A DNA stretch of 64,000 nucleotides from Spirochaetia bacterium (GTDB taxonomy: Bacteria > Spirochaetota > Spirochaetia > SZUA-6 > Bin103), in NCBI GenBank assembly GCA_965198005.1, contig CBDAOI010000003.1:192001-256000 (forward strand), written 5' to 3'. Shown in pieces: positions 19,800 through 44,352 of the stretch. How positions within the stretch are numbered: the stretch's first letter is position 1; each line of letters opens with the position of its first letter. A model generated the notes under the pieces. It was not told the DNA's origin. It saw only the letters and a program-made list of their open reading frames with translations, and did not search any database. The position numbers were made by a program, and so were the translations under genes.

Positions 19800-20770
19800 T
19801 CAACCGGAGCGTTCGGCCTTCTGCAGGGCGCGGCGGGCGCCTTCGATGGCGCGGGCGCTCATGCCGCCGCTGCCGAGGCTCGCCCCGCCGCCGCCACCCC
19901 GCAGCCCGGATCGAGCAGGCCGCACCGCGTCACCAACCCGCGGTACGCCGCCGCCGAACTTAAATCGACCTGGCGCGGTGCGCGTCGAGACGCCCCACGG
20001 CACCTCTGAGCCGCGCGAGCAGGTCTCTCCGGCGTCACCGAACATGTTGAGGGAGTAGACGACCATCGTCAGGCAGAGCCCTGGCCAGAGCGCCAGCCAG
20101 GGTGCTTGCTCCATGTAGTGACGCCCTTCCCGGCTCAGCATCCCCCCCCAGCTCGGAATCTGGGGAGGCAGACCGAATCCGAGAAAGCTCAAGCTGGCTT
20201 CACTGATAATCACTCCCCCAACGTTGATGCTGAAGATGATGATCAGGGGCGCCCGTAGATCAGGCGGCTCAAGAAGTGGTCTCGCCCGATGTAGTCGGTG
20301 CCCAGGAGATACCGGGCAGATGAGCCCTGCAGCCGGTCTGCCGGGTGTACCTCGGCATAGGGATAAGGAGAGAGAACGTCGGCAAAGATCGCCACCACAA
20401 TCAAGATCAAGATGACGATCCCGCTGATCGTCCCGAGTGGCTTCTCCCGCCACAGCCTGAAGAAGAAATCTGCAAACCGCCCCCGTCGCTTGGGCTCACG
20501 GATGGGGGAGGGCCTTTCATTCATACCGCACCCTGGGATCCAAGAACGCATAAGTCAGGTCGATCAAGAGATTGATTCCCAAGACCACGGTGCCGAAAAA
20601 CAGGTTCGTTCCTTGTACTACCGGGTAGTCTCGATCCTGGAGGGCATCCAGCATGAGACGACCGAGCCCCGGCAGGTTGAAGAGGGTCTCCATGATCACG
20701 GCGCCGCCCACCAGGATCGGCAACTGCAGGCCGATCAGGGTCACCACCGGGATGAGGGCATTCTTGATAG
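19800..20770 (-). pseudogene. Remnants of peptide ABC permeases: dppC 3' end, an internally deleted dppC, and a dppB 3' end
   Basis: Homology to the intact permeases downstream (EASLSFLGFG, QLPILVGGAVI, SARAIEGARRALQ). Confidence 0.85.
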
Positions 20771-20878
20771 CAACACGGCGATGTCAATGATTGGCGGAAC
20801 GTGGTCGGTACCGGGCCCTATGAGCTGACTGACTTGGTCGAGGGCAGTTCCTTCACCCATACGAAGAATCCCGACTAT
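20771..20878 (+). pseudogene. Inverted fragment of a family-5 solute-binding protein
   Basis: QHGDVNDWRNVVGTGPYELTDLVEGSSFTHTKNPDY matches the SBPs of this locus but lies on the opposite strand. Confidence 0.85.
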
Positions 20879-20934
20879 CGAAGGGCCGGCCCGCTGGCCT
20901 TGCAGGCCCGCGCGAGACGGCCTACGCTGCCGCC

Positions 20935-21954
20935 ATGGCCAGCACCAAGGCACCGCCAACCAAGCGCTACGAAGTATACGAAGTAGGGCAACCCCGGCAC
21001 GCCCAGCCGCCGGCATTCCCGGGCTGCAAGCCCGTCCGCCTGCCGCGCACCGAGATCGACCGCTTCGAGGGGCGCCTCGAGTATTGGGATTCGGCTACCG
21101 AGACCGCCTGGATCTGCGAGCCCACCACTCCCTATCACGAGCGCCCGTCGCGGCTGTTCACGAGATTGGCGGAGTTGATCGCCAGGGTGCGCGGTTCACC
21201 GATCGAATGCTACGGCTCGATGGACCTGCTGCTGCGCGACGCCGGCGGCGAGCCGCGGCGCATCATGCAGGCGGACGAGTCGGTGTACCTGCATCCGGCG
21301 CGGGCCAAGCCGGGGCCGGCGGCCATGGTGGTGGGCGAGGATGACTTTCCCGACGTGGTGCTGGAGGTGGATCACACTACGGACGCGCGGCGGGGCAAGC
21401 TGGCGCTGTACGAGGACTGGGGCTTTCCGGAAGTGTGGGTGGACGTGCCGGACACGCTGTCGCCGAGGCGGGCACGCGGGCGCCGCCCGGGACTGACGAT
21501 TCATCTGCTGGAGCATGGTCGGTTTCGGGTGGCGGCCGAGAGCCGGGCGTTTCCCGGCTGGCGGGCGGACGAGATTCACCTGGCGCTGAACGAGCCGGCG
21601 CCGTCCGCGCGCACCAGCGCGGTGGTGGAGCGGGTCGGGGCGGCGCTGGGCGCGCGCGCAGGCACCGGCCCGGACGACGACCCGCTGTTGCGCTCGCAAC
21701 GGCGCCAGGGGTTCGAGCGGGGCCGTGCTGAAGGTCGCGCGGAAGGTCGCGCGGCAGGCCACGCGGAAGCCCGTGCACAGATGGTCCGTCAGATCCTGCG
21801 GTCACGGGGCATTGAAGTGTCGGCAAGGTTCTCCACCGATACGGAAGCGGTCGCCGCGGCGTCCGAGGAGGCGCTGCTGGCGGCGGCGCTTGGCTGCGCG
21901 GATGAGGCGGAGTTCCTTGCCGCGCTCCGGCGATTGCGCGCCCCGGGCGGCTGA
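20935..21954 (+). CDS. Uma2 (DUF820) family PD-(D/E)XK endonuclease, copy 1
   Basis: RLEY, P..YHE, QAD, FPDVVLEVD, K..LY...GFPEVW; EGRA-repeat tail. Confidence 0.85.
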   Translation: MASTKAPPTKRYEVYEVGQPRHAQPPAFPGCKPVRLPRTEIDRFEGRLEYWDSATETAWICEPTTPYHERPSRLFTRLAELIARVRGSPIECYGSMDLLLRDAGGEPRRIMQADESVYLHPARAKPGPAAMVVGEDDFPDVVLEVDHTTDARRGKLALYEDWGFPEVWVDVPDTLSPRRARGRRPGLTIHLLEHGRFRVAAESRAFPGWRADEIHLALNEPAPSARTSAVVERVGAALGARAGTGPDDDPLLRSQRRQGFERGRAEGRAEGRAAGHAEARAQMVRQILRSRGIEVSARFSTDTEAVAAASEEALLAAALGCADEAEFLAALRRLRAPGG

Positions 21955-21990
21955 GCCGCTCGTCTGGTACACCGTCCCAGGCGCGCTCTC

Positions 21991-22923
21991 TCAAATCGCC
22001 CTGGCGGCATCGGCACCGAGACGTCCGCCACCACCCCGTAGCCTCGGGTCGAGCAGGTCCCGCACCGCGTCGCCGAACATGTTTAGAACGTAAACGGTAA
22101 TCGTCAGAGCAAGACCCGGCCAGAGTGCCAGCCATGGCGCCATCTCCATGTATTGACGCCCTTCCCGGCTGAGCATCCCTCCCCAGCTGGGAATCTGGGC
22201 AGGCAGACCGAATCCGAGAAAGCTCAGCGACGCCTCACTGATAATCACCCCCCCGACGTTGATGCTGAAGATGATGATGAGGGGCGCCATAATATTGGGC
22301 AGGACATGGCGCATCACGATTTGGCTGGTCGGGGTACCCACGGCCCGGGCTGCCAGAAAATAGTCATTCTCTTTAATGCCGATCACGGCGCCTCGGGCTA
22401 CTCTTGAGCTGCCGATGCCCCCTGCTATCCCCAGGACCAGTATTATCTGTAACAGACCTTGCCCCGCTATGGACATAATCGTTAACAAGACCAGCAGTCC
22501 TGGAAAAGCCATCCAGGCATCGACAAATCGCTGCACGACCAGGTCTGATTTACCACCAAGGAATCCCGAAACCCCGCCTATCAGCACAGCGACCACAACA
22601 TTCAGCGTGGTCGCGGCAAGACCAACAAGCAACGAAATACGAGCCCCGTAGAGAATGCGGCTCAAGAAGTCTTGCCCCAGCTGGTCGGTACCCAGCAGAT
22701 ATTGGCCTGATGAGCCCTGCAGCCTGTCTACCATGTGTATCTCATCATGTGGATACGGGGCCAAAACATCAGCGAAGATGGCCACCAGAATCAATATGAA
22801 TACAATAATCCCGGAGGCAGTACCCAGTGGCTTCTCCTTGACCAGCCTGATGAAGAAATCAGCCAGCCGGGAACTTCTCTTCCGCACAATTTCTGCTGAC
22901 GGTATCCCTATGGCGTCGCTCAT
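21991..22923 (-). CDS. Peptide/nickel ABC permease (DppC-like), cassette 1
   Basis: LLGTDQLG, GARISL, AARAVG, HVLPN, EASLSFLG, GDAVRDLLDPR. Confidence 0.93.
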   Translation of the reverse strand: MSDAIGIPSAEIVRKRSSRLADFFIRLVKEKPLGTASGIIVFILILVAIFADVLAPYPHDEIHMVDRLQGSSGQYLLGTDQLGQDFLSRILYGARISLLVGLAATTLNVVVAVLIGGVSGFLGGKSDLVVQRFVDAWMAFPGLLVLLTIMSIAGQGLLQIILVLGIAGGIGSSRVARGAVIGIKENDYFLAARAVGTPTSQIVMRHVLPNIMAPLIIIFSINVGGVIISEASLSFLGFGLPAQIPSWGGMLSREGRQYMEMAPWLALWPGLALTITVYVLNMFGDAVRDLLDPRLRGGGGRLGADAARAI

Positions 22924-22941
22924 ATCCCCGATTTCTCCCCT

Positions 22942-23901
22942 TTAGCTATAGCGGAGCCTGGGGTCTAAATAAGTATAGATCACGTCTATCATTAGATTGG
23001 CCCCCAGAACCATGGTGGCGAAAACCAGGTTTACTCCGGAGACCACCGGGTAGTCTCTGTCTTCGAGGGCAACCAGCAAGAGACGACCGATCCCTGGCAG
23101 GTTGAAGATGTTCTCCATGATCACGGCGCCCCCGACCAGGATCGGCAACTGCAGGCCGATCAGGGTCACCACCGGGATGAGGGCATTTTTGATGGTGTGT
23201 CGGATAATCACGACCCGCTCCTTGAGACCCTTGGACCAGGCCGTCCGGATATAGTCTTGCCTGAGCACCTCCAGCATCATGGTGCGCGTCATCCGCATGG
23301 TGGCGGCAGCCGAGGCCGTTCCCAGAATCAGGCTGGGGATGATGAGTATCCCAAGATTCCCCAGCGGGTCTTCGGTGAAAGGAATCAGCTCCATCGGGGG
23401 CGACCAGCCCCACCAGAGTGCCGGGTAGAGCATAACCATGGTTCCCAGCCAGAAGTTAGGCGTGGCCAGGCCGACGACGGCGACCGAGCGCCCCGCGTAG
23501 TCGGCGGCCGTGTCCTGGCGAATCGCCGAGTAGATGCCGACCGGCAAGGCTATGACCAGCCCGACGACGATTGCCATGAGACCGAGCTCAATGGTTACTG
23601 GCAATCTAGATACTATCTTCTCCTCTACCGACCAATCGCCCGACAGTGATTCGCCAAGGGTGCCGTGCCGGAGAATAGCCCCTATCCAGCGTCCATACTG
23701 CACGTAGACAGGCACGTCCAATCCAAGCATGCGCTCCATAGCTTCACGGTCAATCGTCCCGTGGCTGTAGTAGGCCATCCGACCCACCATCACGTCTATT
23801 ACATCGCCGGGGATGAAGCGTACTGAGAGAAAGACCAGGATGCTCAATATGAACAGGGTGGGGATCATCAGCAATAACCGCCTGATGATATAGGCTCTCA
23901 C
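22942..23901 (-). CDS. Peptide/nickel ABC permease (DppB-like), cassette 1
   Basis: YIIRRLL, IPGD, TPNFW, QDYIRTA..KGL, NALIP, DPR. Confidence 0.93.
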   Translation of the reverse strand: MRAYIIRRLLLMIPTLFILSILVFLSVRFIPGDVIDVMVGRMAYYSHGTIDREAMERMLGLDVPVYVQYGRWIGAILRHGTLGESLSGDWSVEEKIVSRLPVTIELGLMAIVVGLVIALPVGIYSAIRQDTAADYAGRSVAVVGLATPNFWLGTMVMLYPALWWGWSPPMELIPFTEDPLGNLGILIIPSLILGTASAAATMRMTRTMMLEVLRQDYIRTAWSKGLKERVVIIRHTIKNALIPVVTLIGLQLPILVGGAVIMENIFNLPGIGRLLLVALEDRDYPVVSGVNLVFATMVLGANLMIDVIYTYLDPRLRYS

Positions 23902-23966
23902 GTGACACACCTCATTGCGATTTCCCCTCTCATTGTGAGCCGCGACTTACTAGGGCGTGCTCAATG

Positions 23967-24004: not shown

Positions 24005-24065
24005 CTACCACCCTATCTATAGCTATAGCTATTGCTAGGGTCTGTCGAAAGTGGCAAAAAAACCC

Positions 24066-25871
24066 CTAGTAGCCCATCTCTTGCTTCAGATCCTGGTCAA
24101 TCCAGAGGCGGGCCGCGACTGCTTTGTGGTCCATGTTTCCCAGTTCGGTTTCACCGTTGAAACCTACGACCCACGGCTGGAGCACGTTCATAAGTGGAAC
24201 TCTAGAACCCCATATATACCAGTGCTTTTCTATAATGTACATGTCTACAAGTTTAGTCAGCCTCTGCCGCTCCTCAGTGGTGGTAGCGGCTTGGACATCT
24301 GCAACCATGGCGTCATAAACCGGGTCCCGGACGTGGGGGGGGTTGAAAGTAGCGTCCGACGTCATTTGCAGTATCTGCCCTATAGGGTTCCACTCGTACC
24401 CCGAAATAAAAGCGAACATATCATAATCACCTTCGTTCATCTTTGGTATAAAACCAGCCCACTCAGACCCCCTAACCTCTACATCGACGCCAACCTCAGC
24501 CCAGTAGGAGGCAGCTAAGTCGTTATAGGCCACATCCCAATGTGGTAAACCCACGTTCAGGACAATCTTTAATCTAATGCCGTCCGCGCCGCGCGGATAT
24601 CCAGCCTCATCAAGCAACGCTTCTGCCCCTTCCGGGTCATAGGTATAGTATCCCTTGACCTCTTCAGGCCAGTCTGCAAATGGAGTGACATACCCTTGCA
24701 TACCGACCCCTAAATACCCCTGAGGTGTCGTATCTGCATAACCCCTCCAGTAGGCAGCGTTAATTGAGTCAAGGTCCAGTGCCATCTGCATTGCGTGCGC
24801 TACCCGGGGGTCGTCAAAGGGCGGCCTTGATGAGTTAACAGGCCAAGACGTCAAAGATCGAAATGAAAACGGCTCCATCAGGATTTCGGGGTTGGTCTTC
24901 CTAAGGCTGTCTACCTGGTCCATGGACGAGAGATAAACGCCGCCAAAATAGGCCAGTAAATCAATCTTAGCCGAGCGTAGTGCCGCCAGACGTGTTGCTG
25001 CATCTGGTATAATCAGCGCCTTTAACGTGTCAACATAGGGCAGGCGATTCTCCGGGTACTTTGCGTCGAAGCCCCAGTAGTTAGGATTCTTGGTCCAGGT
25101 TACGGAGGTGCCCTCGGTCCAGTCAGTCAGCTCAAAGGGTCCAGTGCCGACCAGGTTCCTCCAATCCTTAACGTCGCCGTGTTCCTCGATTACCTCGGGG
25201 GGGTATGTAAAAGTCATAATGGTCGTCAAAATATTCCTTAGCCCGTCAGGATCTGCCTTCGTCAGCTTAAAGACGAGCGTCCATTCGTCGGTGGCCGTTA
25301 TCGATTCCCATGGCAGCTTAACCATCGGATTCGTAGCGTAATAGGCAGCAGGTTCGGTGTAGCCACTGCCCAGACCCAAATAACGGTGCAAGTTATATTC
25401 GATGTCCTTGGCAGTTAGCTCCCGACCGTTCATCGGCGCCTTATCATGCCAGTGTACGCCCTTGCGGATCTGGAAGACGATCGTGGTAGCGTCGGGCGTT
25501 TCCCAGCTTTCAGCCAGGTGCCCTCTAAAGACAGAGTCAGGAAAGTACGTTGTTCTATAGCTAAATACGTCCCTCTCGAATGCCCAGTCCGCGATGGTTA
25601 GCCTCTCTACGACGCCACTGATGAGTGATCCTGCGGTGTGATTGTAATAGACGTCAGCATTCTGCCAGTTTTCGCTCCCACTGGCATAGGTAAGTGTTCC
25701 GCCATACTGCGGCGCCACCACCACCTTGCCGGTGGAGGGGTCGGTCACATATTTCTTGTCGGCAGCGGCTGCCGTCGAGCCCTCGTCTGCGCCAGCGGCC
25801 CACAGGCCGGTTGCGGTCAGAATCAGGACCAACGCAAACGCGAAGGTCATTCTAATAATTGCTATATTCAT
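24066..25871 (-). CDS. Family-5 ABC substrate-binding protein, cassette 1 (lower GC)
   Basis: Signal peptide; LAESWE, RKGVHWH, GTGPF, NPNYW, YDPE.A..LL.EAGY. Confidence 0.93.
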   Translation of the reverse strand: MNIAIIRMTFAFALVLILTATGLWAAGADEGSTAAAADKKYVTDPSTGKVVVAPQYGGTLTYASGSENWQNADVYYNHTAGSLISGVVERLTIADWAFERDVFSYRTTYFPDSVFRGHLAESWETPDATTIVFQIRKGVHWHDKAPMNGRELTAKDIEYNLHRYLGLGSGYTEPAAYYATNPMVKLPWESITATDEWTLVFKLTKADPDGLRNILTTIMTFTYPPEVIEEHGDVKDWRNLVGTGPFELTDWTEGTSVTWTKNPNYWGFDAKYPENRLPYVDTLKALIIPDAATRLAALRSAKIDLLAYFGGVYLSSMDQVDSLRKTNPEILMEPFSFRSLTSWPVNSSRPPFDDPRVAHAMQMALDLDSINAAYWRGYADTTPQGYLGVGMQGYVTPFADWPEEVKGYYTYDPEGAEALLDEAGYPRGADGIRLKIVLNVGLPHWDVAYNDLAASYWAEVGVDVEVRGSEWAGFIPKMNEGDYDMFAFISGYEWNPIGQILQMTSDATFNPPHVRDPVYDAMVADVQAATTTEERQRLTKLVDMYIIEKHWYIWGSRVPLMNVLQPWVVGFNGETELGNMDHKAVAARLWIDQDLKQEMGY

Positions 25872-26396
25872 ACGTTTCTCCGTATGTAGATTTTTCGAGA
25901 GTATTGCGTAGCGGTTGCCGCTCCCTGGCTACTCTGACGCCCGCAACGCGGGCGCGCCCGCCAACGCGGACGGCCAGTCAGAGTCAAATACACTACAAGC
26001 GCGCGGCGTGTGACTCAGCGGGTTCACCCCGACTCACGCCGCGCGCGCGTGCGGTTCTTTGAGTATCATTCGAACCTCCTTCTTCTCTAGATCTACGTCG
26101 CGATCTGCGTTACAACGCCACGCGTGGCGGTGGTCTGAGCAGCAGTGAGTCTGAATAACCGCCAACGCAGGCGGTGGGTTTTGCGCGCAGTTGGTCGCAG
26201 GCGGGGATCCGGCACCGTTGCGGTCGACGGGAAGGGTGCGGGCGGTCTTGATGCCGGTTCGACGATGGACCGAGCCGGCGCCACGGATAGCTACGGCGGT
26301 CGTGAAGGCGCCCGCGTGCGCGGGGTCGCGTACGCGGCGATCAGCCCGAGCGGTTAGTTGTTTCTCGGTTTGAAAAGTGAGGCTGGCGAACAACGC

Positions 26397-26784
26397 GGGG
26401 GGGGGGGGGGGGGGGGGGGTAGATGAACGGAATGGGCCGATGCGGCACCCCGGGCGGCGGTGCTCGGGCGCCAGCAGCGGGGGCCGGTGGCAGGGCTGCA
26501 TTGCGTAGTCAGGCATCATCATCCGTATCCGTTCGAGTCCCCAACCCCGACATCATCGCACACCCGCGCCAAAGCGATCAAGCGCTCAATTGCACTTTTT
26601 TGCACTTTCTTCACTTTTTGTCCAGCGGCCCTGTCGCCGCTGGCGGCTGCACCACCAAGCCCGCCCGGTCACGCCAGAGTCCGCCACGGCACTGCCGGCA
26701 ACTGCCTCGGTCTCGATCGCGTCGCTTTCGAAGGGCCGGCCCGCCGGCCTTGCAGACCCGCGCGAGACGGCCTACGCTGCCGCC
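26397..26784. repeat. Conserved non-coding block (G-tract plus about 365 bp) upstream of Uma2 copy 2
   Basis: Recurs at 32050-32422; diverged at about 39827-40065; 3' part only at about 33615-33781, 41227-41291 and 20879-20934. Confidence 0.9.
26750..26778 (+). promoter_or_regulatory. Leaderless sigma70-type promoter, shared by all five Uma2 copies
   Basis: TTGC(A/G)G-17 nt-TACGCT-6 nt-ATG, with no Shine-Dalgarno. Confidence 0.65.
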
Positions 26785-27768
26785 ATGGCCAGCACCAAGG
26801 CACCGCCAACCAGGCGCTACGAAGTATACGAAGTAGGGCAACCCCGGCGCGCCCAGCCGCCGGCATTCCCGGGCTGCAAGCCCGTCCGCCTGCCGCGCAC
26901 CGAGATCGACCGCTTCGAGGGGCGTCTCGAGTATTGGGATGCGGCCACCGAGACCGCCTGGATCTGCGAGCCCACCACTCCCTATCACGAGCGCCCGTCG
27001 CGGCTGTTCACGAGATTGGCTGAGCTGATCGCCAGGGTGCGCGGTTCGCCGATCGAATGCTACGGCTCGATGGACCTGCTGCTGCGCGACGCCGGCGGCG
27101 AGCCGCGGCGCATCATGCAGGCGGACGAGTCGGTGTACCTGCATCCGGCGCGGGCCAAGCCGGGGCCGACGGCCATGGTGGTGGGCGAGGATGACTTTCC
27201 CGATGTGGTGCTGGAGGTGGATCACACCACCGACGCGCGGCGGAGCAAGCTGGCGCTGTACGAGGACTGGGGCTTTCCGGAAGTGTGGGTGGAGGTGCCG
27301 GACACGCTGTCGCCGAGGCGGGCACGCGGGCGGCGCCCGGGACTGACGATTCATCTGCTGGAGCATGGTCGGTTCCGGGTGGCGGCCGAAAGCCGGGCGT
27401 TTCCCGGCTGGCTGGCGGACGAGATTCATGAGGCGCTGAACGAGCCGGCGCCATCCGCGCGCACCAGCGCGGTGGTGGAGCGGGTCGGGGCGGCGCTGGG
27501 CGCGCGCGCAGGCACCGGCCCGGACGACGACCCGCTGCTCCGTTCGCAACGGCGCCAGGGATTCGAGCAGGGTCGTGCGGCAGGTCGGGCGCAGATGGTC
27601 CGCCAGATCCTGCGGTCACGCGGCATTGAAGTGTCGGCGAGGTTCTCCACCGCCACGGAGGCGTTCGCCGCGGCGTCCGAGGAGGCGCTGCTGGCGGCGG
27701 CGCTTGGCTGCGCGGATGAGGCGGGTTTCCTTGCCGCACTCCGGCGATTCCGCGACCCGGGCGGCTGA
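26785..27768 (+). CDS. Uma2 family endonuclease, copy 2
   Basis: Near-identical to copy 1. Confidence 0.85.
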   Translation: MASTKAPPTRRYEVYEVGQPRRAQPPAFPGCKPVRLPRTEIDRFEGRLEYWDAATETAWICEPTTPYHERPSRLFTRLAELIARVRGSPIECYGSMDLLLRDAGGEPRRIMQADESVYLHPARAKPGPTAMVVGEDDFPDVVLEVDHTTDARRSKLALYEDWGFPEVWVEVPDTLSPRRARGRRPGLTIHLLEHGRFRVAAESRAFPGWLADEIHEALNEPAPSARTSAVVERVGAALGARAGTGPDDDPLLRSQRRQGFEQGRAAGRAQMVRQILRSRGIEVSARFSTATEAFAAASEEALLAAALGCADEAGFLAALRRFRDPGG

Positions 27769-27839
27769 CCTCGCCCGCGCAGCCGGCGTGCCCGACGAGG
27801 CGGCATGCAGGTGGCGGACAGGCATGGCCGCCGGCCGTA

Positions 27840-28802: not shown

Positions 28803-28812
28803 GCGCCAGACT

Positions 28813-29778: not shown

Positions 29779-29856
29779 GGTAGGGCGTCTCGAAAGTGGG
29801 ACGGCGGCCTGTGCCGCCATCCCACTTCGTCATCTGCCAACAGTGAAGCTGCTACG

Positions 29857-33418: not shown

Positions 33419-33431
33419 CCTCGCCCGCACA

Positions 33432-33603
33432 GCCGGACGAGCCCGAAGAGACGGCGCACATGGTTGCGGCTGCCGGCGGGCAGGCCATGGCACTGCACAC
33501 CGACGTCGCCGACCCGGCCGCGGTCGAGGCGATGGCGCAGGCAGTGGTCGACCGCTACGGCCGCCTCGATTGTGCCTTTAACGCCGCCGGTGTGGGTGGC
33601 GGC
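33432..33603 (+). pseudogene. Short-chain dehydrogenase (SDR) internal fragment
   Basis: EETAHMVAAAGGQAMALHTDVAD...YGRLDCAFNAAG. Confidence 0.75.
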
Positions 33604-33781
33604 CCGTGCCGACGACTTTTTTTCGGCGGCCCTGGCGCCTCTGGCGGCTGCAGTAGCGGGCTCGCCGGTCACACCAAGGTCCACGGCACTGCCGGCAACT
33701 GCCTCGGTCTCGATCTCTTCGCTTTCGAAGGGCCGGCCCGCCGGCCTTGCGGGCCCGCGCGAGACGGCCTACGCTGCCGCC

Positions 33782-34765
33782 ATGGCCAGCACCAAGGCAC
33801 CGCCAACCAGGCGCTACGAAGTATACGAAGTAGGGCAACCCCGGCACGCCCAGCCGCCGGCATTCCCGGGCTGCAAGCCCGTCCGCCTGCCGCGCACCGA
33901 GATCGACCGCTTCGAGGGGCGCCTCGAGTATTGGGATGCGGCCACCGAGACCGCCTGGATCTGCGAGCCCACCACTCCCTATCACGAGCGCCCGTCGCGG
34001 CTGTTCACGAGATTGGCTGAGCTGATCGCCAGGGTGCGCGGTTCGCCGATCGAATGCTACGGCTCGATGGACCTGCTGCTGCGCGACGCCGGCGGCGAGC
34101 CGCGGCGCATCATGCAGGCGGACGAGTCGGTGTACCTGCATCCGGCGCGGGCCAAGCCGGGACCGGCGGCCATGGTGGTGGGCGAGGACGACTTTCCCGA
34201 CGTGGTGCTGGAGGTGGATCACACCACCGACGCGCGGCGGAGCAAGCTGGCGCTGTACGAGGACTGGGGCTTTCCGGAAGTGTGGGTGGAGGTGCCGGAC
34301 ACGCTGTCGCCGAGGCGGGCACGCGGGCGCCGCCCGGGACTGACGATTCATCTGCTGGAGCATGGTCGGTTTCGGGTGGCGGCCGAGAGCCGGGCGTTTC
34401 TCGGCTGGCGGGCGGACGAGATTCACGTGGCGCTGAACGAGCCGGCGCCGTCCGCGCGCACCAGCGCGGTGGTGGAGCGGGTCGGGGCGGCGCTGGGCGC
34501 GCGCGAAGGCACCGGCCCGGACGACGACCCGCTGCTCCGTTCGCAACGGCGCCAGGGATTCGAGCAGGGTCGTGCGGCAGGTCGGGCGCAGATGGTCCGC
34601 CAGATCCTGCGGTCACGCGGCATTGAAGTGTCGGCGAGGTTCTCCACCGCCACGGAGGCGTTCGCCGCGGCGTCCGAGGAGGCGCTGCTGGCGGCGGCGC
34701 TTGGCTGCGCGGATGAGGCGGGTTTCCTTGCCGCACTCCGGCGATTCCGCGACCCGGGCGGCTGA
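33782..34765 (+). CDS. Uma2 family endonuclease, copy 4
   Basis: Near-identical to copy 2. Confidence 0.85.
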   Translation: MASTKAPPTRRYEVYEVGQPRHAQPPAFPGCKPVRLPRTEIDRFEGRLEYWDAATETAWICEPTTPYHERPSRLFTRLAELIARVRGSPIECYGSMDLLLRDAGGEPRRIMQADESVYLHPARAKPGPAAMVVGEDDFPDVVLEVDHTTDARRSKLALYEDWGFPEVWVEVPDTLSPRRARGRRPGLTIHLLEHGRFRVAAESRAFLGWRADEIHVALNEPAPSARTSAVVERVGAALGAREGTGPDDDPLLRSQRRQGFEQGRAAGRAQMVRQILRSRGIEVSARFSTATEAFAAASEEALLAAALGCADEAGFLAALRRFRDPGG

Positions 34766-34836
34766 CCTCGCCCGCGCAGCCGGCGTGCCCGACGAGGCGG
34801 CATGCAGGTGGCGGACAGGCATGGCCGCCGGCCGTA

Positions 34837-35802
34837 TCAGGCTGACCGGGCGGCCTCTTGCAGGGCGCGGCGGGCGCCTTCGATGGCGCGGGCGCTCATG
34901 CCGCCGCTGCCGAGGCCGGCGCCGCCGCCGCCGCCCCGCAGCCGGGGGTCGAGCAGGTCGCGCACCGCGTCACCGAACATGTTCAGGCAGTACACCACCA
35001 CCGTGAGCGCCACCCCCGGCCACATCGCCAGGCGCGGCGCCATCTCCATGAACTGGCGCCCCTCGCGGCTCAGCATGCCGCCCCAGCTCGGCACCGTGGT
35101 CGGCAGGCCGAACCCCAGGAAGCTCAAGGACGCTTCGGCGATGATGATGCCGCCGATCGTGATCGAGAACACGACGATCACCGGCGCGGTGATGTTCGGC
35201 CACACGTGGCTCTTCAGGATGTGCCAGGGAGCGCTGCCGATGGCGCGCGCGGCCTCGAAGTAGGGATTCTCCTTGATGCCGATCACGGCGCTGCGGATCA
35301 CGCGCGAGTTGCCGATGCCGGAAGTGACGCCGAGCACGACGATGATCTGCAGGATGCCCTGGCCGACGATGGTGATGATCGTCAGCAGCAGCAACAGGCC
35401 GGGGAAGGACATCCAGGCGTCGACGAAGCGCTGCACCAGAATGTCCAGCTTGCCGCCGACGAAGCCGGCCACGCCGCCGACCAGCAGCGCCACCACGGTG
35501 CTCAGCAGGGTGGCGGCAAAGCCCACCCCGAGCGAGGTGCGGGCGCCGTACACCAGCCGGCTCAACACGTCGCGGCCGAGCTGGTCGGTGCCCAGCAGGT
35601 AGGTGGCCGACGGGTCGCCCAACCGGTCGACCAGGTGCATCTCGGCGAAGGGGAAGGGTGCCAGGACGTCGGCCAGGATGGCGATCAGCGCCAGCACCAG
35701 GACCACCACCGCGCTCGCCGCCCCGAGCGGGCGCTCCTTGAACAGTCGCCGCAGCAGGTCGAGCAGGAACGGCTGCGGTTTGGGATTATCGTTCATCGAC
35801 AC
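34837..35802 (-). CDS. DppC-like ABC permease, cassette 3
   Basis: Almost identical to 27840-28802. Confidence 0.93.
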   Translation of the reverse strand: MSMNDNPKPQPFLLDLLRRLFKERPLGAASAVVVLVLALIAILADVLAPFPFAEMHLVDRLGDPSATYLLGTDQLGRDVLSRLVYGARTSLGVGFAATLLSTVVALLVGGVAGFVGGKLDILVQRFVDAWMSFPGLLLLLTIITIVGQGILQIIVVLGVTSGIGNSRVIRSAVIGIKENPYFEAARAIGSAPWHILKSHVWPNITAPVIVVFSITIGGIIIAEASLSFLGFGLPTTVPSWGGMLSREGRQFMEMAPRLAMWPGVALTVVVYCLNMFGDAVRDLLDPRLRGGGGGAGLGSGGMSARAIEGARRALQEAARSA

Positions 35803-35803
35803 C

Positions 35804-36769
35804 TCACCGGTACTGCACCCGCGGGTCGAGGTAGCCGTAGAGAATGTCGATCATCAGGTTGATCGTCATAACCGCGGTCGCGAAGAACAGGTTGATGCCC
35901 GACACCACCGGGTAGTCGCGCACCTTGAGCGCCTCGAGCATCAGTCGCCCCAGCCCCGGCAGCGCGAACATGTTCTCCATGATCACCGAGCCGCCGACCA
36001 GGATCGGGAGTTGCAGGCCGATCAGGGTCACCACCGGGATCAGCGCGTTCTTGATCACGTGCCGGAGGATGATCACCCGTTCCTTCAGTCCCTTCGCCCA
36101 GGCGGTGCGGATGAAGTCCTGGCGCAGCACCTCCAGCATCATGGTGCGCGTCATGCGCATCACGGTGGCCGACAGGTAGGTGCCCAGAATGAGGCTGGGA
36201 ATGAACAGGTGGCCGAGGTTGCGCAGCGGGTCATCGGCGAACGCCACCATGCGCAGCGGCGGCGCCCATGCCCACCAGATGGCGGGGAAGGTCAGCACCA
36301 GGGTGGCGAGCCAGAAGTTGGGCGTCGCCAGGCCGATGATGGCGATGGAGCGGCCGGCGTAGTCGCCCGCCGTGTCTTGCCGCACCGCCGAGTAGATGCC
36401 CACCGGCACGGCGATGACCAACCCGATGAGGATGGACAGGACGCCCAGCTCGATTGTGATCGGCAGCCGGCCGATGATCTTTTCCTCGACGGTATATCCG
36501 CCGAACAGCGACTCGCCCAGGGTGCCGCGCAGGAAGATGCCGCCCAGCCAGCGCACGTACTGCACGTGCGCCGGCACATCCAGCCCGAGCATGCGCTCGA
36601 CCTTCTCGCGGTCCACGTGCACCATCCCGCCCACTTCCTCCGCCAGCCGGGCCATCATGCTGTCGACGACGTCGCCGGGAAGAAAGCGCACCGACAGGAA
36701 CACCAGAACCGTCAACAGGAGGAACGTCGGGATCAGCAGCAGGACGCGGCGGATGATGTAGGTTCGCAT
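35804..36769 (-). CDS. DppB-like ABC permease, cassette 3
   Basis: Close paralogue of 28813-29778. Confidence 0.93.
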   Translation of the reverse strand: MRTYIIRRVLLLIPTFLLLTVLVFLSVRFLPGDVVDSMMARLAEEVGGMVHVDREKVERMLGLDVPAHVQYVRWLGGIFLRGTLGESLFGGYTVEEKIIGRLPITIELGVLSILIGLVIAVPVGIYSAVRQDTAGDYAGRSIAIIGLATPNFWLATLVLTFPAIWWAWAPPLRMVAFADDPLRNLGHLFIPSLILGTYLSATVMRMTRTMMLEVLRQDFIRTAWAKGLKERVIILRHVIKNALIPVVTLIGLQLPILVGGSVIMENMFALPGLGRLMLEALKVRDYPVVSGINLFFATAVMTINLMIDILYGYLDPRVQYR

Positions 36770-36835
36770 TGCAGGGCGCCTGGGAAGTGGGACGGCAGCA
36801 CACGCCACCGGCCCACTCCGTCATGTGGCAGCGGA

Positions 36836-36936
36836 GCCCGCCGTTAGGCGGGCCCCTTTCAATCGCCCGTAGGGCGAGTTGATTCGTGCAGGCGCGCTGA
36901 GCGCGCCTGCAATGGAAACCGCCCCTGGCGGTTTCC
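36836..36936. repeat. Four consecutive inverted repeats between SBP3 and dppB3
   Basis: gcccgcc/ggcgggc; tcgccc/gggcga; tgcaggcgcgc/gcgcgcctgca; ggaaaccgcc/ggcggtttcc. Confidence 0.85.
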
Positions 36937-38757
36937 TCAGAATCCGAGCTCCCGCTTCAGATCCTGGTCGATCCAGAGGCGCGTCAGGAGCGTTGTGAAA
37001 CCCGGCACGCCGATCGACAGCTCCCCGTTGTAGCCCTTGACCCACGGCTGGGCGACGTTGAACTGGGGGACGGGACCGGGACCGTCGATATGCCAGTGCT
37101 GGCTTACCGCGTACAGATTCGCCTCCTTGGTGAGCCGAATAATATCCTCCAGGGTGGTAGCTGCCGTGGCGGCGTCGATCATCGCGTCCATTTGCGGGTC
37201 GTTGACGCCCAATCCGTCGTTGTTCAGGCCGTAGGGGGAATTTGAGCGGTAAAAGGACTCAAGAATTTTGATATCCGCGGTCGGGTTAGCGTTTTCGCCG
37301 TGTGCAATTCCGTCTGAGGTATGCTCGCGCGTGATGGCCAGGAGCTCCGCGGCGCCATGAATGCTCATCTCGACGTCGACGCCAATCTCAGCCCAGTATC
37401 CAATGACGAGCTCCGCGTAGTTCGCATCGTAGCGTTCGAAGTATTTCAATTCGGTCTTGAAGCCATCAGGATAGCCCGCCTCGGCCAGCAGCTGCTTGGC
37501 CCGCTCCGGATCGTAGCGGTAGTACTGCTTGACCTCCTCCGGCCATTGGTCGAAGGGCGTCCCAAAGAGGCCGTCGTTGTGCACCAGTCCGTGCGGCGTC
37601 GCGTCCGCATACCCCTTGAAGTAGGTGTTGGCGATCGTCTCCCGATCAATCGCCATCTGCAGGGCCTGCCGTACCCGGAGATCGTTGAACGGCGGCCGGC
37701 TCACGGTGATGAACCGAAATGCCTGGTCGGATCGAGAGGGGCGGTCCCAGATGTTGATGTGGGGATCGGTCCTTCGCAGGCTCTCGACCTGGTCGATCTG
37801 CCTCAGCTGAGCGTCGCCGCTATTCGTCAACATATCGATTTGACCCGAGCGCAGGGCCGCGAGCCGCGCCGCCGGATCCGGTAGGATCAGGCCGACGATC
37901 TCGTCGACGTAGGGCAAGCGGTTCTCCGGGTATTTTTCGTCGAAGCCCCAATAGTTGGGATACTTAGTGTAGGTTAAACTGCTGCCATCGACGAAGTCCG
38001 TCAGCTCCATGGGCCCGGTGCCAACCAGATTCCTCCAATCCTGCATGTCGCCGTGCTGCTGGATCACCTCCGGAGGGTAGATCCAGGTGATCCACATATT
38101 GAGTAGCGCGGATCCAAAGCCGTAGGCAGGATGTGGCTTTAGAGGCCAAACGAGGTCTGGCTCTGCCAGCTTGAAGACCACCGTCGATGCGTCGGTGGCC
38201 GTAACCGATTCGATCTTGGGAAGCTGATTTGCAGCGTGCCGCGAGGCTTCGCTGAAGCCGCTACCGATCCCGTAGAGGCGATGATAGTTGAATTCGACAT
38301 CGCTGGCGGTGAGCTCGCGACCGTTCATCGGTGCTTTGTCGTGCCAACGAACGCCCGGGCGGATGTGGACGATCAGCGTGGCGGCATCCGACCATTCCCA
38401 GCTCTCCGCCAACTGTCCTCGCATGATAGACGTAGGAAAGGAAAAGAGGCGAAGGTCGTTCTCACTCCTGTCGACCGCCCAGTCCACGATGGCGAGCTGC
38501 TCGGTGACCATGCCGACGAACATTCTTGACCAGCCGCTGTTCGCCCAGGCATCAGGGTGCTCGCCCATGGCGACCACGCCGAAGGTGAGGGTCCCGCCAT
38601 ACTCGGGCGCGGTGACCATCTCGCCGGTGGATGGGTCGAGCACCATCTCCTTCTCGGCAGCGGCGGCCGGCTGGTCGCTCTCGCCGCTGGCAAACGTAAC
38701 GGTAGCCACCAGCGCGAGCGCCAGTGTCAACAAACCGATTCTGAAAACGTAGTTCAT
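36937..38757 (-). CDS. Family-5 ABC substrate-binding protein, cassette 3
   Basis: GGAGG RBS; paralogue of SBP2. Confidence 0.93.
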   Translation of the reverse strand: MNYVFRIGLLTLALALVATVTFASGESDQPAAAAEKEMVLDPSTGEMVTAPEYGGTLTFGVVAMGEHPDAWANSGWSRMFVGMVTEQLAIVDWAVDRSENDLRLFSFPTSIMRGQLAESWEWSDAATLIVHIRPGVRWHDKAPMNGRELTASDVEFNYHRLYGIGSGFSEASRHAANQLPKIESVTATDASTVVFKLAEPDLVWPLKPHPAYGFGSALLNMWITWIYPPEVIQQHGDMQDWRNLVGTGPMELTDFVDGSSLTYTKYPNYWGFDEKYPENRLPYVDEIVGLILPDPAARLAALRSGQIDMLTNSGDAQLRQIDQVESLRRTDPHINIWDRPSRSDQAFRFITVSRPPFNDLRVRQALQMAIDRETIANTYFKGYADATPHGLVHNDGLFGTPFDQWPEEVKQYYRYDPERAKQLLAEAGYPDGFKTELKYFERYDANYAELVIGYWAEIGVDVEMSIHGAAELLAITREHTSDGIAHGENANPTADIKILESFYRSNSPYGLNNDGLGVNDPQMDAMIDAATAATTLEDIIRLTKEANLYAVSQHWHIDGPGPVPQFNVAQPWVKGYNGELSIGVPGFTTLLTRLWIDQDLKRELGF

Positions 38758-39241
38758 GAGAAGAACCTCCGATTCTCGATTCTTGTTCGAGAGCATGTGC
38801 TGATCCTGGTGCCGGCCCCTCGTCTGCTCTCGTTGCCTGTCTGCCGCTCTGTGTTGTGTGCGGCGCAGGCGGTTCCGACGAGGGCGACAACCTCGAACTG
38901 ACCCCGGGAGCGATCAGGCACAAGTGCCGTTGGATCGCGTCCCGCGGTGGATTACAGCTTCACGGGCACCTCCCGTATGCGTACCGGTCAGACGCAGGTC
39001 GACGCCGGTCGGAGGCGTGAACGGGTCTCGCCGGTGGTTTGTTCTGCTGTCCGGCAACGCCGGGGGTGATTGCTGACAGAGGACCAAGCAGGGCGGTGGC
39101 CGACGCGCGCGGTCGTCGGTTTACGGCGCCGGGCGCTCGGTGTGTGACGTGAGAGTTAGAGCTTACTGCCCCTTGTGTGTGTGTTGGGGGGGGGGGTGCA
39201 GCATAAGCGCTAACTTGTTGTGGGGGCCTACAGGGGCCATG

Positions 39242-39386
39242 CATGACTTTACTGTGCGACCGTACCACGGACGTGCGACTCGGATCAACCAGCCGCGTCG
39301 AAAAAATCGAAGAAATCTGGCAGCTCATGGCCCTACGGTGCGACCGTATCACGGACCCGCGACTCGCGTCAACCAGCCAGATCGAA
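39242..39386. repeat. Two imperfect direct repeats of about 60 bp with an 84-bp period
   Basis: catg..tac(t/g)gtgcgaccgta(c/t)cacggac..gcgactcg..tcaaccagcc..tcgaa occurs twice. Confidence 0.8.
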
Positions 39387-39495
39387 GTAAGCTGACAACT
39401 GAGACAGCCGGCGCCGTGGCGGCTCAGCCAGCGCCCGCGAGATAGCGCCCCAAAACCGCCGCCGGGGCGCCGCTTTTGGCCCATCCCGTCCGACC

Positions 39496-39530
39496 GCTAG
39501 GAGTCTGTCGCAATCCGACAGACTCCTAGC
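39496..39530. repeat. Perfect 15-bp inverted repeat bounded by CTAG (possible IS footprint)
   Basis: gctaggagtctgtcg-caatc-cgacagactcctagc. Confidence 0.85.
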
Positions 39531-39815
39531 GTGCCACTGGTGAACCATGCGCGCCAGTGGCAGAGCCGGTTCGATGGTGCGGGTGACCTGGCCCAGCACG
39601 AACCTGAAGTCACGCCACGCACTGGGTGGCCGCTGACGGCGCCAAGTCGTATCCCCAGGGGGAAATAGCGCTGGCATGGCGGATCAGCTTCTCGACCAGG
39701 AGCGCAACCAGCAGCTTGCCGTACAGCCACGCTTTGGCGCTGTCGTCGTCGTATTTCGGCAGGTGGCCCAACTGCGCCAACGATTTGAACCGTTTGAACA
39801 CCAACTCCACCTGCC
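39531..39815 (-). mobile_element. IS4-family transposase C-terminal remnant
   Basis: WQVELVFKRFKS (DDE signature W.IE..FK..KS) followed by HLPKYDDDSAKAWLYGKLL. Confidence 0.75.
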
Positions 39816-40167
39816 AGGGAGGTACAGGGGGTAGACGAACGGGAGAGGCCAAAGCGGTACGCCAGGCGGCGGTGCTCGGGCGCCAGTAGGGTGGGCCGGT
39901 GGCAGGGCTGCTTTGCGTAGTCAGGCATTATCCGTATCCGTTCGAGTCCCAACCCCGATAGCATCGCACATCCCCGCCAAAGCGGTCAAGCGCTCAATTG
40001 CACTTTTTTTCCGGCGGCCCTGACGCCTCCGGCAGGCAGCACAAAGCTCGCCGGTCACGCCATTCCGTGCGGAAATCCTCGTCCACGTCCCGCATGGAGA
40101 GAGTGTAGTTCCAGAAGTCGACGAATACCCAAGGATGAGCGGCCCATATGGCAAGCCCGCCTACCCC

Positions 40168-40275
40168 GCCGCCTTGTGCAGGGCGCGGCGGGCGCCTTCG
40201 ATGGCGCGGGCGCTCATGCCGCCGCTGCCGAGGCCGGCGCCGCCGCCCCCCCAGGCGGGGATCGAGCAGGTCGCG
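40168..40275 (-). pseudogene. Isolated 3' end of a dppC-like gene
   Basis: Matches the RDLLDPR...GLGSGGMSARAIEGARRAL end of dppC2 and dppC3. Confidence 0.75.
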
Positions 40276-40294
40276 AGTGTGATAGACTTCCGGT

Positions 40295-40519
40295 GTGCCG
40301 TCATTCGCGCGCGATACACGCCCCGCAGCCGAGCGGTTTCAGACTGATGTGTATCGCAGGATGGAACCGGCGCAGAGATACTCCGTTGGCACGGAGCTCA
40401 GCGACAGCGTCAGAGACATAGCTCTGGCGGGCCTCCGCGAGCGCTTGCGCGGCTGTACGGAGCGCGCACTGCTACGGCGCTACGTGCTTGAGCACTGGGG
40501 CGTGAGCGTCGAGGAATGA
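40295..40519 (+). CDS. Small hypothetical protein, likely partner of the downstream nucleotidyltransferase
   Basis: TAGACT-6 nt-GTG start; its stop overlaps the next ATG (ATGA). Confidence 0.6.
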   Translation: MPSFARDTRPAAERFQTDVYRRMEPAQRYSVGTELSDSVRDIALAGLRERLRGCTERALLRRYVLEHWGVSVEE

Positions 40520-41085
40520 AGAGCCAGGGCGAGTTGCTCGGCGAAATCGCATCGCTCCTGGACGCAGCCCAGGTCCGATACATGGTTACCGGGTCGATCG
40601 CCAGCACGTACCACGGCAGACCGCGCGCTACGCAGGATGTCGACGTGGTCGTGGAGACCAACCGTGATCACCTCCTGGCTTTCGTGCGGGCTTGTGTTGC
40701 GCGTGGATTCTACGTGGACGCTGACGACGCCAAGGACGCCCTGGAGCACCGCTCGATCTTCAACGTAATCGACGTTTCCAGCGGCTACAAGGTCGACATC
40801 ATTGTCCGCAAGGATCGGCCGTTCAGCGTCGAGGAGTTCTCGCGGCGGCGCCGGGTGGAGCTGCCAACGTTTGTCGTCTCCATGGTCACCGCGGAAGACG
40901 CCATCCTCAGCAAGCTTGAATGGAACCAGGCCGGCGGCTCGGATCGCCAGTACCAAGATGCGGTGGGGATCGCCTTATCCCAAGGCGATCTGCTCGACCT
41001 CGCCTATCTCCGGCGGTGGGCGGTCGAGCTCGGAGTGGAGAACGAACTCCGGCGGCTCCTCTCCGAACGAGAACGGGACCGGTAG
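40516..41085 (+). CDS. Pol-beta-like nucleotidyltransferase (AbiEii/DUF6036-like)
   Basis: YMVTGSIA...G.PRATQDVD, KVD, EDAILSKL, D..YLRRWA..LGV. Confidence 0.75.
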   Translation: MKSQGELLGEIASLLDAAQVRYMVTGSIASTYHGRPRATQDVDVVVETNRDHLLAFVRACVARGFYVDADDAKDALEHRSIFNVIDVSSGYKVDIIVRKDRPFSVEEFSRRRRVELPTFVVSMVTAEDAILSKLEWNQAGGSDRQYQDAVGIALSQGDLLDLAYLRRWAVELGVENELRRLLSERERDR

Positions 41086-41291
41086 CGGTATCGATCGGAG
41101 CGGAAACGGGCTGAGCCAGGTCACGGATATGTGCCGTGCGGCATACCCGTCGGGTGGGCAGGCGAGTCCGCCTCGGATCTCCCCAGCCCGGATGGGTCTC
41201 GTTCGGGTAGCGGTCCTCGTCACCGGCTTCGCTTTCGAAGGGCCGGCCCGCCGGCCTTGCAGGCCCGCGCGGGACGGCCTACGCTGCCGCC

Positions 41292-42299
41292 ATGGCCAGC
41301 ACCAAGGCACCGCCCACCAGGCGGCACGAAGTATACGAAGTAGGGCAACCCCGGCACGCCCAATCGCCGGCGTTCCCGGGCTGCAAGCCCGTCCGCCTGC
41401 CGCGCACCGAGATCGACCGCTTCGAGGGGCGCCTCGAGTATTGGGATGCGGCCACCGAGACCGCCTGGATCTGCGAGCCGACCACTCCCTATCACGAGCG
41501 GCCCTCGCGGCTCCTGACGCGCCTGGCCGAGCGGATTGCCGGCGTGCGCGGTTCGCCGATCGAATGCTACGGCTCGATGGACCTGCTGCTGCGCGACGCC
41601 GGCGGCGAGCCGCGGCGCATCATGCAGGCGGACGAGTCGGTGTACCTGCATCCGGCGCAGGCCAAGCCGGGACCGGCGGCCATGGTGGTGGGCGAGGATG
41701 ACTTTCCCGACGTGGTGCTGGAGGTGGATCACACCACCGACGCGCGGCGGAGCAAGCTGGCGCTGTACGAGGACTGGGGCTTTCCGGAAGTGTGGGTGGA
41801 GGTGCCGGACACGCTGTCGCCGAGGCGGGCACGCGGGCGCCGCCCGGGACTGACGATTCATCTGCTGGAGCATGGTCGGTTCCGGGTGGCGGCCGAGAGC
41901 CGGGCGTTTCCCGGCTGGCGGGCGGACGAGATTCACCTGGCGCTGAACGAGCCGGCGCCGTCCGCGCGCACCAGCGCGGTGGTGGAGCGGGTCGGGGCGG
42001 CGCTGGGCGCGCGCGCAGGCACCGGCCCGGACGACGACCCGCTGCTCCGTTCGCAGCGGCGCCAGGGATTCGAGCAGGGTCGTGCGGAAGGCATAGCGGA
42101 AGGTCGGACGGAAGGCCGCGCGCAGATGGTCCGTCAGATATTGCTGTCACGCGGCATTGAAGTGTCGGCGCGGTTGTCCACCGCTACGGAAGCGTTCGCC
42201 GCGGCGTCCGAGGAGGCACTGCTGGCGGCGGCGCTTGGCTGCGCGGATGAGGCGGAGTTCCTTGCCGCGCTCCGGCGATTGCGCGACCAGGGCGGCTGA
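41292..42299 (+). CDS. Uma2 family endonuclease, copy 5
   Basis: Near-identical to copy 1, with a divergent patch RLLTRLAERIAGV. Confidence 0.85.
   Translation: MASTKAPPTRRHEVYEVGQPRHAQSPAFPGCKPVRLPRTEIDRFEGRLEYWDAATETAWICEPTTPYHERPSRLLTRLAERIAGVRGSPIECYGSMDLLLRDAGGEPRRIMQADESVYLHPAQAKPGPAAMVVGEDDFPDVVLEVDHTTDARRSKLALYEDWGFPEVWVEVPDTLSPRRARGRRPGLTIHLLEHGRFRVAAESRAFPGWRADEIHLALNEPAPSARTSAVVERVGAALGARAGTGPDDDPLLRSQRRQGFEQGRAEGIAEGRTEGRAQMVRQILLSRGIEVSARLSTATEAFAAASEEALLAAALGCADEAEFLAALRRLRDQGG

Positions 42300-42395: not shown

Positions 42396-44352
<1,957 letters not shown>

Follow-up and report, generated by a model that had tools for sequence, protein, structure and literature searches.

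Layout of the array

We examined a stretch of 64,000 nucleotides from the genome of a sponge-associated Spirochaetia bacterium (positions 192001–256000 of contig C3), hereafter the window, meaning the whole stretch of DNA that was analyzed. The genome, G000, comprises 4.89 Mb in four contigs (C1 to C4) with 66% GC; G001, G003 and G005 denote other species used for comparison. The window contains a 22.5-kb array of five Uma2 genes and three transporter cassettes, with cassette remnants at both ends, occupying a slot whose content varies between species. Each cassette lies on the minus strand and consists of a gene for a family-5 substrate-binding protein (SBP; Pfam SBP_bac_5) and two permease genes, dppB and dppC (both BPD_transp_1). 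NCBIfam places the cassettes among the Opp/Dpp/Nik-type importers, with no equivalog cut-off reached. We favor, with confidence somewhat above even, reading the array as an island specific to this lineage and built of duplicated units, in each of which a Uma2 gene is joined to a cassette without ATPase genes; the Uma2 genes would be kept alike by gene conversion and would probably provide no more than a passive 1.1 kb of homology for ordinary homologous recombination.

The features of the array and its edges are as follows, in window coordinates.

19293–19760, minus strand: left flank gene with no Pfam family; left edge of the variable slot, kept in the sister species G003; 77% nucleotide match to L080:10409–10986
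19800–20768, minus strand: cassette remnant, dppC 19800–20253 and the 3′ part of dppB 20252–20768, ending at the start of Uma2 unit 1; BLAST identity 68–90% to cassettes 1 to 3
20870–21972, plus strand: Uma2 unit 1; ORF 20935–21954, 339 amino acids; PF05685 at 32.2 bits
21991–25871, minus strand: cassette 1; dppC 21991–22923, dppB 22942–23910, SBP 24066–25871
26410–26719, minus strand: segment "U", a non-coding leader/promoter 5′ of the SBP gene; recurs by SBP 5′ ends elsewhere in the genome
26720–27790, plus strand: Uma2 unit 2; ORF 26785–27768
27791–27839, minus strand: 3′ end piece of the cassette, containing a GC-rich hairpin; from here on the window is homologous to a sister cassette on C1 that lacks Uma2
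27840–31812, minus strand: cassette 2; dppC 27840–28802, dppB 28813–29820, SBP 29857–31812
31900–32357, minus strand: leader of cassette 2, containing "U" at 32050–32340
32358–33440, plus strand: Uma2 unit 3; ORF 32423–33418; no cassette of its own
33460–33600, plus strand: piece of a short-chain dehydrogenase gene, stranded where Uma2 units 3 and 4 meet; adh_short profile positions 40–88; 74% match to C4:1140710–1140868
33615–34787, plus strand: partial leader and Uma2 unit 4; ORF 33782–34765
34837–38796, minus strand: cassette 3; dppC 34837–35802, dppB 35804–36808, SBP 36937–38796
39039–40062, minus strand: leader pieces of cassette 3, at 39039–39194 and 39827–40062
40168–40275, minus strand: remnant of a dppC 3′ end, 91% identical to 27853–27965 (self-BLAST)
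40516–41085, plus strand: weak AbiEii-like toxin fragment; PF08843, E = 0.0014, 19 bits against a Pfam cut-off of 22.5
41226–42321, plus strand: Uma2 unit 5; ORF 41292–42299; adjoins the 5′ end of the acetyl-CoA synthetase gene
42331–44352, plus strand: acetyl-CoA synthetase gene in two frames, 42360–44342 and 43243–44352; right edge of the variable slot

Uma2 copies 1, 2 and 4 converge with dppC, their stop codons lying 36–72 bp off, and the SBP 5′ region is divergent from copies 2 and 3. The larger self-homology equates copy 2 plus cassette 2 (26613–29839) with copy 4 plus cassette 3 (33615–36830) at 94.6% identity; a further one, also found by self-BLAST, pairs the leader and copy 2 with the leader and copy 3. 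Cassette 1 has about 70% nucleotide identity to cassettes 2 and 3. A Pfam scan of the 20 + 65 open reading frames (ORFs) of the region found no ABC ATPase, integrase or transposase domain; the 65 extra ORFs, all of at least 100 amino acids, gave just two matches, an OppC_N fragment (20243–20551, inside the left remnant) and the short-chain dehydrogenase fragment. The initial annotation had described five Uma2 genes, three cassettes and end remnants, with no ATPase, integrase or intact transposase, and the ORF listing, Pfam and self-BLAST confirm this.

The Uma2 unit and its protein

To our knowledge, Uma2 is a very large protein family without a tested function. All five ORFs match PF05685 (Uma2) at 31.2–32.2 bits, the cut-off being 27. 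The encoded proteins are 94–97% identical to that of copy 1 and 94–98% identical among all five, and the DNA identity among the copies is 92.4–95.0% over about 1.08–1.10 kb. All five copies share a repeat that begins about 65 bp upstream of the ATG and ends about 20 bp downstream of the stop codon. The Uma2 unit has discrete ends and is, as had been proposed, a conserved spacer. No terminal inverted repeats or target duplications were seen on inspecting the aligned unit ends, and since Pfam finds no transposase domain in the ORFs of the region the unit does not qualify as an insertion sequence. The ratio of nonsynonymous to synonymous divergence (dN/dS) is 0.15–0.25 in all ten pairs of copies, and therefore the five copies have been kept functional by purifying selection.

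All 38 family members in the alignment share the four residues H68, D114, E144 and K155. These fit the PD-EXX-K pattern of COG4636 described by Feder and Bujnicki (2005; PMC551604), with the lysine shifted to the next helix; this mapping of the active site uses residue spacing and the range of the Pfam alignment, and no superposition. The AlphaFold2 (AF2) model, with a mean predicted local distance difference score (pLDDT) of 79, has an N-terminal alpha/beta domain and a helical C-terminal half that includes a long helix at residues 250–290. Its top Foldseek matches in the PDB, namely 9y1l (E = 3.9e-6), 6okh, 3ijm, 3ot2 and 1wdj (TT1808), cover the N-terminal half only; 9y1l, 6okh, 3ot2 and 1wdj are Uma2/DUF820 structures. 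Judging by model and alignment, the protein, here termed Uma2-long, has the Uma2/DUF820 fold with a complete His...D...ExxK site and is a predicted nuclease.

The long helix carries a four-residue repeat whose length varies by 0–12 residues among the five copies and by up to about 44 across the family. A possible likeness of this tail to those of Rpn/DUF4351 proteins was not significant when tested. The tail has no Pfam match at E ≤ 10, and a genome scan for DUF4351 (PF14261) gave weak matches (E = 0.29–0.79), one of them (E = 0.57) in the tail of a paralogue at C2:491316–491480. Searched against PADLOC, Uma2-long gave a weak match to the candidate PDC-S17 alone (E = 6.9e-4).

Homogenization of the Uma2 copies

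The Uma2 copies had been called near-identical, and by synonymous divergence (dS) they are far more alike than the flanking cassettes: dS is 0.035–0.15 among Uma2 copies, against 0.09–0.38 between cassettes 2 and 3 and about 1–2.4, a saturated value best read as at least 1, between cassette 1 and the others. Within the duplicated unit dS climbs away from Uma2, from 0.035 for Uma2 itself (copy 2 against copy 4) through 0.093 for dppC and 0.24 for dppB to 0.38 for the SBP gene. Identity changes in steps, being 97–100% over 26700–28700, 91–94% to 29500 and then 72–92% in patches. Mosaic sites together with this stepped identity support exchange of sequence between the Uma2 copies. Among the five copies, the four-gamete test is failed by 220 of the 465 informative site pairs, and in a permutation test resembling the pairwise homoplasy index (PHI) on seven copies, adding those at C4:203k and C1:187k, the observed value was reached in none of 2000 permutations.

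Comparison with other species gives the same picture at a larger scale. A tree of 25 proteins unites the window copies in one clade (98/95 support) and the G005 copies in another. Uma2 identity is 94–98% within the window, 82–88% within the G001 array and 80–85% between species. The order SBP (minus), Uma2, Uma2, dppC (minus) is found also in G001, G003 and G005, where dppC and dppB are 88–95% identical to those of cassettes 2 and 3; the unit is therefore older than these species. As judged from these sequence comparisons, the Uma2 copies are homogenized within G000 and within G005, that is, they show concerted evolution.

A second array, at C4:109217–131700, has three units of about 7.6 kb, each with a short-chain dehydrogenase gene (minus strand) followed on the plus strand by Uma2, a leader and SBP-DppB-DppC. 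Its Uma2 genes belong to another subfamily and are oriented as their cassettes. The spacers of dehydrogenase plus Uma2 are 99–100% identical and the cassettes 82–98%, the same pattern as in the window; it may reflect either homogenization of the spacer or divergence of the cassettes by patching from paralogous fragments elsewhere, two processes that are not separable here.

A variable slot and its sister sites

In the sister species G003 the corresponding slot reads CoxM, CoxS, XdhC and the homologue of 19293–19760, then about 4.5 kb with different genes (one for an AAA_22 protein, the rest ORFs that match no Pfam family), and last an intact acetyl-CoA synthetase gene; between that homologue and the acetyl-CoA synthetase gene the array is absent. 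Homology between the window and G003 ends at 19760 and restarts at 42331, about 10 bp past the end of Uma2 unit 5, and therefore the stretch singled out by the initial annotation matches a variable slot exactly. The nearest genomes are different species with rearranged synteny, and the comparison is one of presence or absence of slot content. The acetyl-CoA synthetase gene at the right edge has 94% DNA identity to that of G003, versus 77–79% for the neighboring cox and xdhC genes. Its two frames could reflect a frameshift, a sequencing error or a recent exchange between species.

Sister copies elsewhere in G000 differ at the junction with Uma2. A sister cassette at C1:195400–196990 is 95% identical and matches from about 10 bp past the stop codon of Uma2 copy 2; it has a PIN gene in the place of Uma2, and a 25-nt remnant of a Uma2 3′ end (C1:194595) lies 0.8 kb off. 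At this junction the copy at C4:203k carries an insert of 120 bp. The spacer is a hot spot of module swapping.

Around the sister cassette, C1:172000–220000 is littered with broken pieces of cassettes and Uma2 genes; cassette genes take up 23% of this 310-kb contig. Among the pieces are stretches of dppC with 97–99% identity to the dppC genes of cassettes 2 and 3 in the window, and the Uma2 copy at 187066–188151 carries a frameshift.

Small genes resembling toxin-antitoxin or nuclease genes surround the island in the window (18890–19261, 44365–44948, 46236–46565 and 1058–2053), representing DUF2442 (twice), DUF4160, PDDEXK_9 and a YhcG-type PD-(D/E)XK nuclease. A DarTG-like pair, consisting of a DarT-like ADP-ribosyltransferase gene and a macro-domain gene, lies at 55023–57121; near it are an AAA_15/DUF3696 gene (52548–53912) and an RNA ligase gene (54233–54949).

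Transporter cassettes across the genome

With the window proteins as tblastn queries, we found 192 SBP, 213 dppB and 218 dppC loci in the genome; of these, 121, 132 and 121, respectively, are single matches over 80% or more of the query. Combined, the cassette genes make up 12.6% of the genome. The oligo_HPY profile has eight matches, which form four DppD/F pairs. Three of these pairs are in distant complete operons; the remaining orphan pair (C3:1173618–1174833) has no SBP or permease gene within 8 kb and is a candidate shared motor for the approximately 200 cassettes that lack an ATPase.

The GC content of cassette 1 is 0.52–0.58 against 0.60–0.68 for cassettes 2 and 3, a difference that the initial annotation had recorded correctly. 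The further argument, that low GC marks a foreign cassette brought into the same slot, fails against the SBP genes of the genome, whose median is 0.554 (range 0.514–0.651; 129 full-length loci). Because the GC content of cassette 1 is typical of these genes, it is cassettes 2 and 3 that are the GC-rich exceptions.

By BLAST, each cassette has its own upstream leader, common to cassettes elsewhere. The conserved leader upstream of SBP genes (26034–26522 and 31848–32159, minus strand) has a run of C, read as proline in one frame, and the length of this run differs between cassettes. Small ORFs in this position (26034–26522, 31848–32159, 38960–39484 and 39497–39964) were considered as genes and rejected; their translations do not look protein-like and match no Pfam family, and we assign them to leader DNA. 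An Rfam scan of the whole window found no family at threshold. BLAST, with no structure-based search, found no attC-like or other capture site; the hairpin piece 3′ of dppC is limited to the closest sister copies (two in the window, one on C4 and one on C1).

Association of Uma2 with cassettes

The genome has 32 Uma2 matches in several subfamilies. Leaving aside one below the cut-off, 17 of 31 loci (55%) are within 1.5 kb of a cassette gene, versus 15.7% of 20,000 random placements outside cassette genes; when the loci are merged into 20 regions, 11 are adjacent to cassettes (binomial p = 6e-5). PIN-domain genes are equally enriched (27 of 52, or 52%, within 1.5 kb; Fisher p = 0.82 against Uma2), and closeness to cassettes is therefore not specific to Uma2. 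In G000 small selfish genes in general sit between cassettes.

Relatives of Uma2-long were examined at 73 loci with 8 kb on each side. Cassette genes are present at 8 of the 10 closest (75–82% identity, same genus), at 7 of the other 63, and at 1 of the 34 loci labelled as other phyla. Homologues of 55–65% identity occur in metagenome-assembled genomes (MAGs) labelled as Gammaproteobacteria, Vicinamibacterales and others. Enrichment of Uma2 next to cassettes, as earlier supposed, exists relative to random placement, yet it does not differ from that of PIN genes and does not extend to distant relatives. Across 19 genomes of the family, which as kin are not independent, the number of Uma2-long matches tracks genome size (rho 0.82) more closely than the count of SBP candidates (rho 0.72), a trend that carries no specific signal. 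In L064, a record titled as a Spirochaetia MAG, nine consecutive Uma2-long matches lie on one strand at 5374–16815, with no transporter genes within 8 kb.

It had also been proposed that cassettes are gained and duplicated through Uma2. Most recent duplicates speak against this: in 86 of 114 dppB pairs (at least 88% identity over at least 600 nt) both members are more than 6 kb from any Uma2 locus, and 11 of 16 SBP pairs under the same criteria have none nearby. At C3:721–740 kb there is a cassette triple of 99.6–99.9% identity with no Uma2 in the vicinity.

Origin of the array

Under the favored reading, duplication and conversion by ordinary homologous recombination, the ancestor would have had the order seen in G001 and G005, namely Uma2, cassette, Uma2, Uma2, cassette. 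Unequal crossing-over would have added an extra unit of Uma2 plus cassette 2/3, and deletions would have left the remnants at both ends. Repeated conversion would have evened out Uma2 (together with dppC), and the SBP genes would have diverged or been patched from other paralogues. Uma2 itself would most likely be a selfish, self-amplifying gene that accumulates between cassettes as PIN toxin modules do, and ATPases from other loci would drive the cassettes.

Several results weigh against this account. Restricted to the five copies of the window, the PHI-like test was not significant (p = 0.235). In both arrays the Uma2-bearing spacer is the most homogenized part, which fits an active role of the nuclease too, and local dppB pairs (less than 30 kb apart) lie near Uma2 in 8 of 15 cases, from about four arrays, against a baseline of 22 of 135 loci (16%). 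The sharp shared ends of the unit and the 25-nt Uma2 remnant beside the PIN module fit a mobile module as well.

In the first of the alternatives, the idea of the initial annotation, Uma2 would act as a nuclease on its own spacer or close to it, and repair from a sister copy would drive conversion, unequal crossing-over and cassette turnover. In its favor, the active site is invariant and complete and the genes are under purifying selection, the most homogenized tract is centered on Uma2 (with dppC) in the first array and on the dehydrogenase-Uma2 spacer in the second, the excess of local dppB duplicates near Uma2 points the same way, and the hypothesis is already in print (PMC551604). Its cleavage and target site are hypothetical, however. 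The triple at C3:721–740 kb was duplicated to near identity without a nearby Uma2, the same architecture in G001 holds copies that are not homogenized, most relatives elsewhere, including 33 of the 34 loci in other phyla, lack a cassette within 8 kb, and PIN genes are just as close to cassettes. We regard this alternative as unlikely. The stronger statement, that Uma2-long is the motor of a recombinase-free cassette array and cuts the spacers to drive conversion and unequal exchange, seems to us quite improbable; if it were true, Uma2 cutting would help this group of sponge-associated spirochaetes to build and reshuffle some 200 transporter cassettes that lack a motor.

The unit of about 1.09 kb might instead be a mobile or homing-like element without a transposase that settles between cassettes, for instance just beyond the terminator hairpin of dppC. 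Identical ends do occur in differing contexts, with copy 1 at a truncated dppB, copy 3 at the dehydrogenase fragment and copy 5 at the acetyl-CoA synthetase start, and the sister cassette on C1 has PIN in the place of Uma2 with the 3′ remnant. The inspected ends, on the other hand, have neither terminal inverted repeats nor target duplications; they coincide with the promoter-proximal region of the gene and its stop codon, as expected where conversion tracts run out of homology, and no clean pair of filled and empty sites was found. We consider such an element a quite unlikely explanation.

It is very doubtful that Uma2, like PIN toxin-antitoxin modules, is kept as a stabilizer, loss of the array being penalized (addiction), or for defense against phage. 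No antitoxin or methylase partner gene was found by Pfam next to the Uma2 units, and the PADLOC match to PDC-S17, which would favor defense, is weak; also in its favor are the equally strong closeness of PIN and Uma2 to cassettes and the richness of the window in genes resembling those of toxin-antitoxin or defense systems (DarT/macro, AAA_15, AbiEii-like, DUF2442/DUF4160).

Public sequencing runs give only contigs of 200–500 nt over the repeats. RNA-library contigs overlap parts of SBP 2 and SBP 3, at depths that cannot be ranked, and the RNA libraries holding parts of the region are labelled "sponge metagenome." Three pairs of cassette segments elsewhere in the assembly are 100% identical between contigs (C1:5109–7945 and C4:1732488–1735324; C2:4160–7543 and C3:799267–802650; C2:776207–777157 and C4:1560944–1561894); two are near contig starts, and these pairs may be assembly overlaps instead of true duplicates. 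That the assembler mis-joined or duplicated the repeats of the array is scarcely credible: the region is repeat-rich, only the short contigs of public runs could be placed, and the identical segments near contig ends hint at overlaps elsewhere, but the five Uma2 copies diverge by 5–8% at the DNA level and have distinct indels in their linker repeats, which argues against collapse or artificial duplication, the unique parts of all three SBP genes show no differences in contigs of runs from three studies, and the same architecture is present in assemblies of three other species.

Reading the array as duplicated units under homologous recombination, we conclude that Uma2 is probably not a dedicated cassette-capturing enzyme, and that the array is probably not a new integron-like capture system. 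The integron-like exchange system envisaged in the initial annotation retains its conserved spacer and the sequence exchange between copies; it loses specificity between Uma2 and cassettes, any attC-like site and the argument from GC content. The large transporter repertoire expands through simple segmental duplication, whether Uma2 is present or not, which tempers claims of a new capture system. The locus offers a natural experiment. Two species have a homogenized Uma2-cassette unit and a third does not, one sister cassette lacks Uma2, and the same genome has a second, independent array; together these make the 20-year-old idea of Uma2 genes stirring genomes directly testable.

Comparison with known systems

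The Opp/Dpp-type (PepT family) ABC importers, such as DppABCDF, have two ATPase genes in the operon. The cassettes resemble them in combining a family-5 SBP with two permeases in the usual order. They differ in that both ATPase genes are missing from each cassette, there being about 200 cassettes and four DppD/F pairs in the genome.

Chromosomal integrons (superintegrons) have toxin-antitoxin cassettes interspersed among exchangeable cassettes. The array is similar in that a variable region holds a long series of exchangeable cassettes interspersed with selfish modules. Unlike an integron, it has no IntI-type tyrosine recombinase among the 20 + 39 + 65 ORFs of region and window (Pfam), no attC-like sites by BLAST and no common promoter, each cassette being a three-gene operon with its own leader, and its turnover can be explained by homologous recombination.

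Tandem gene arrays evolve in concert by unequal crossing-over and gene conversion. The array shares with them copies that are closer within a genome than to their orthologues, mosaic sharing and change of copy number. Classic concerted arrays differ from it in that here the spacer gene (with dppC) alone is homogenized and the substrate-binding genes diverge.

Feder and Bujnicki (2005; PMC551604) described the COG4636 putative PD-(D/E)XK nucleases as proliferating, horizontally spread and probably selfish genes; in that paper nuclease activity and dispersed repeats are both proposed to promote rearrangements, and its survey reports no recurrent neighbor gene for the family. No nuclease assay of a Uma2 family member is reported in the accessible parts of the literature examined, and searches on Uma2, DUF820 and sponge or spirochaete ABC transporters found, among the papers listed, none on Uma2 function or on this cassette expansion. 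The genes described here are like Uma2/COG4636/DUF820 in their Pfam match, fold, His...D...ExxK site, many copies per genome, tandem duplicates and spread across phyla. They are unlike typical members in their long form (about 330 amino acids), conserved helical C-terminal part and variable four-residue linker repeat, and unlike those of the 2005 survey in their stable linkage to a transporter cassette in one genus. New here are a long-form Uma2 subfamily across MAGs labelled as several phyla, its linkage across species to one type of cassette, and its clear concerted evolution.

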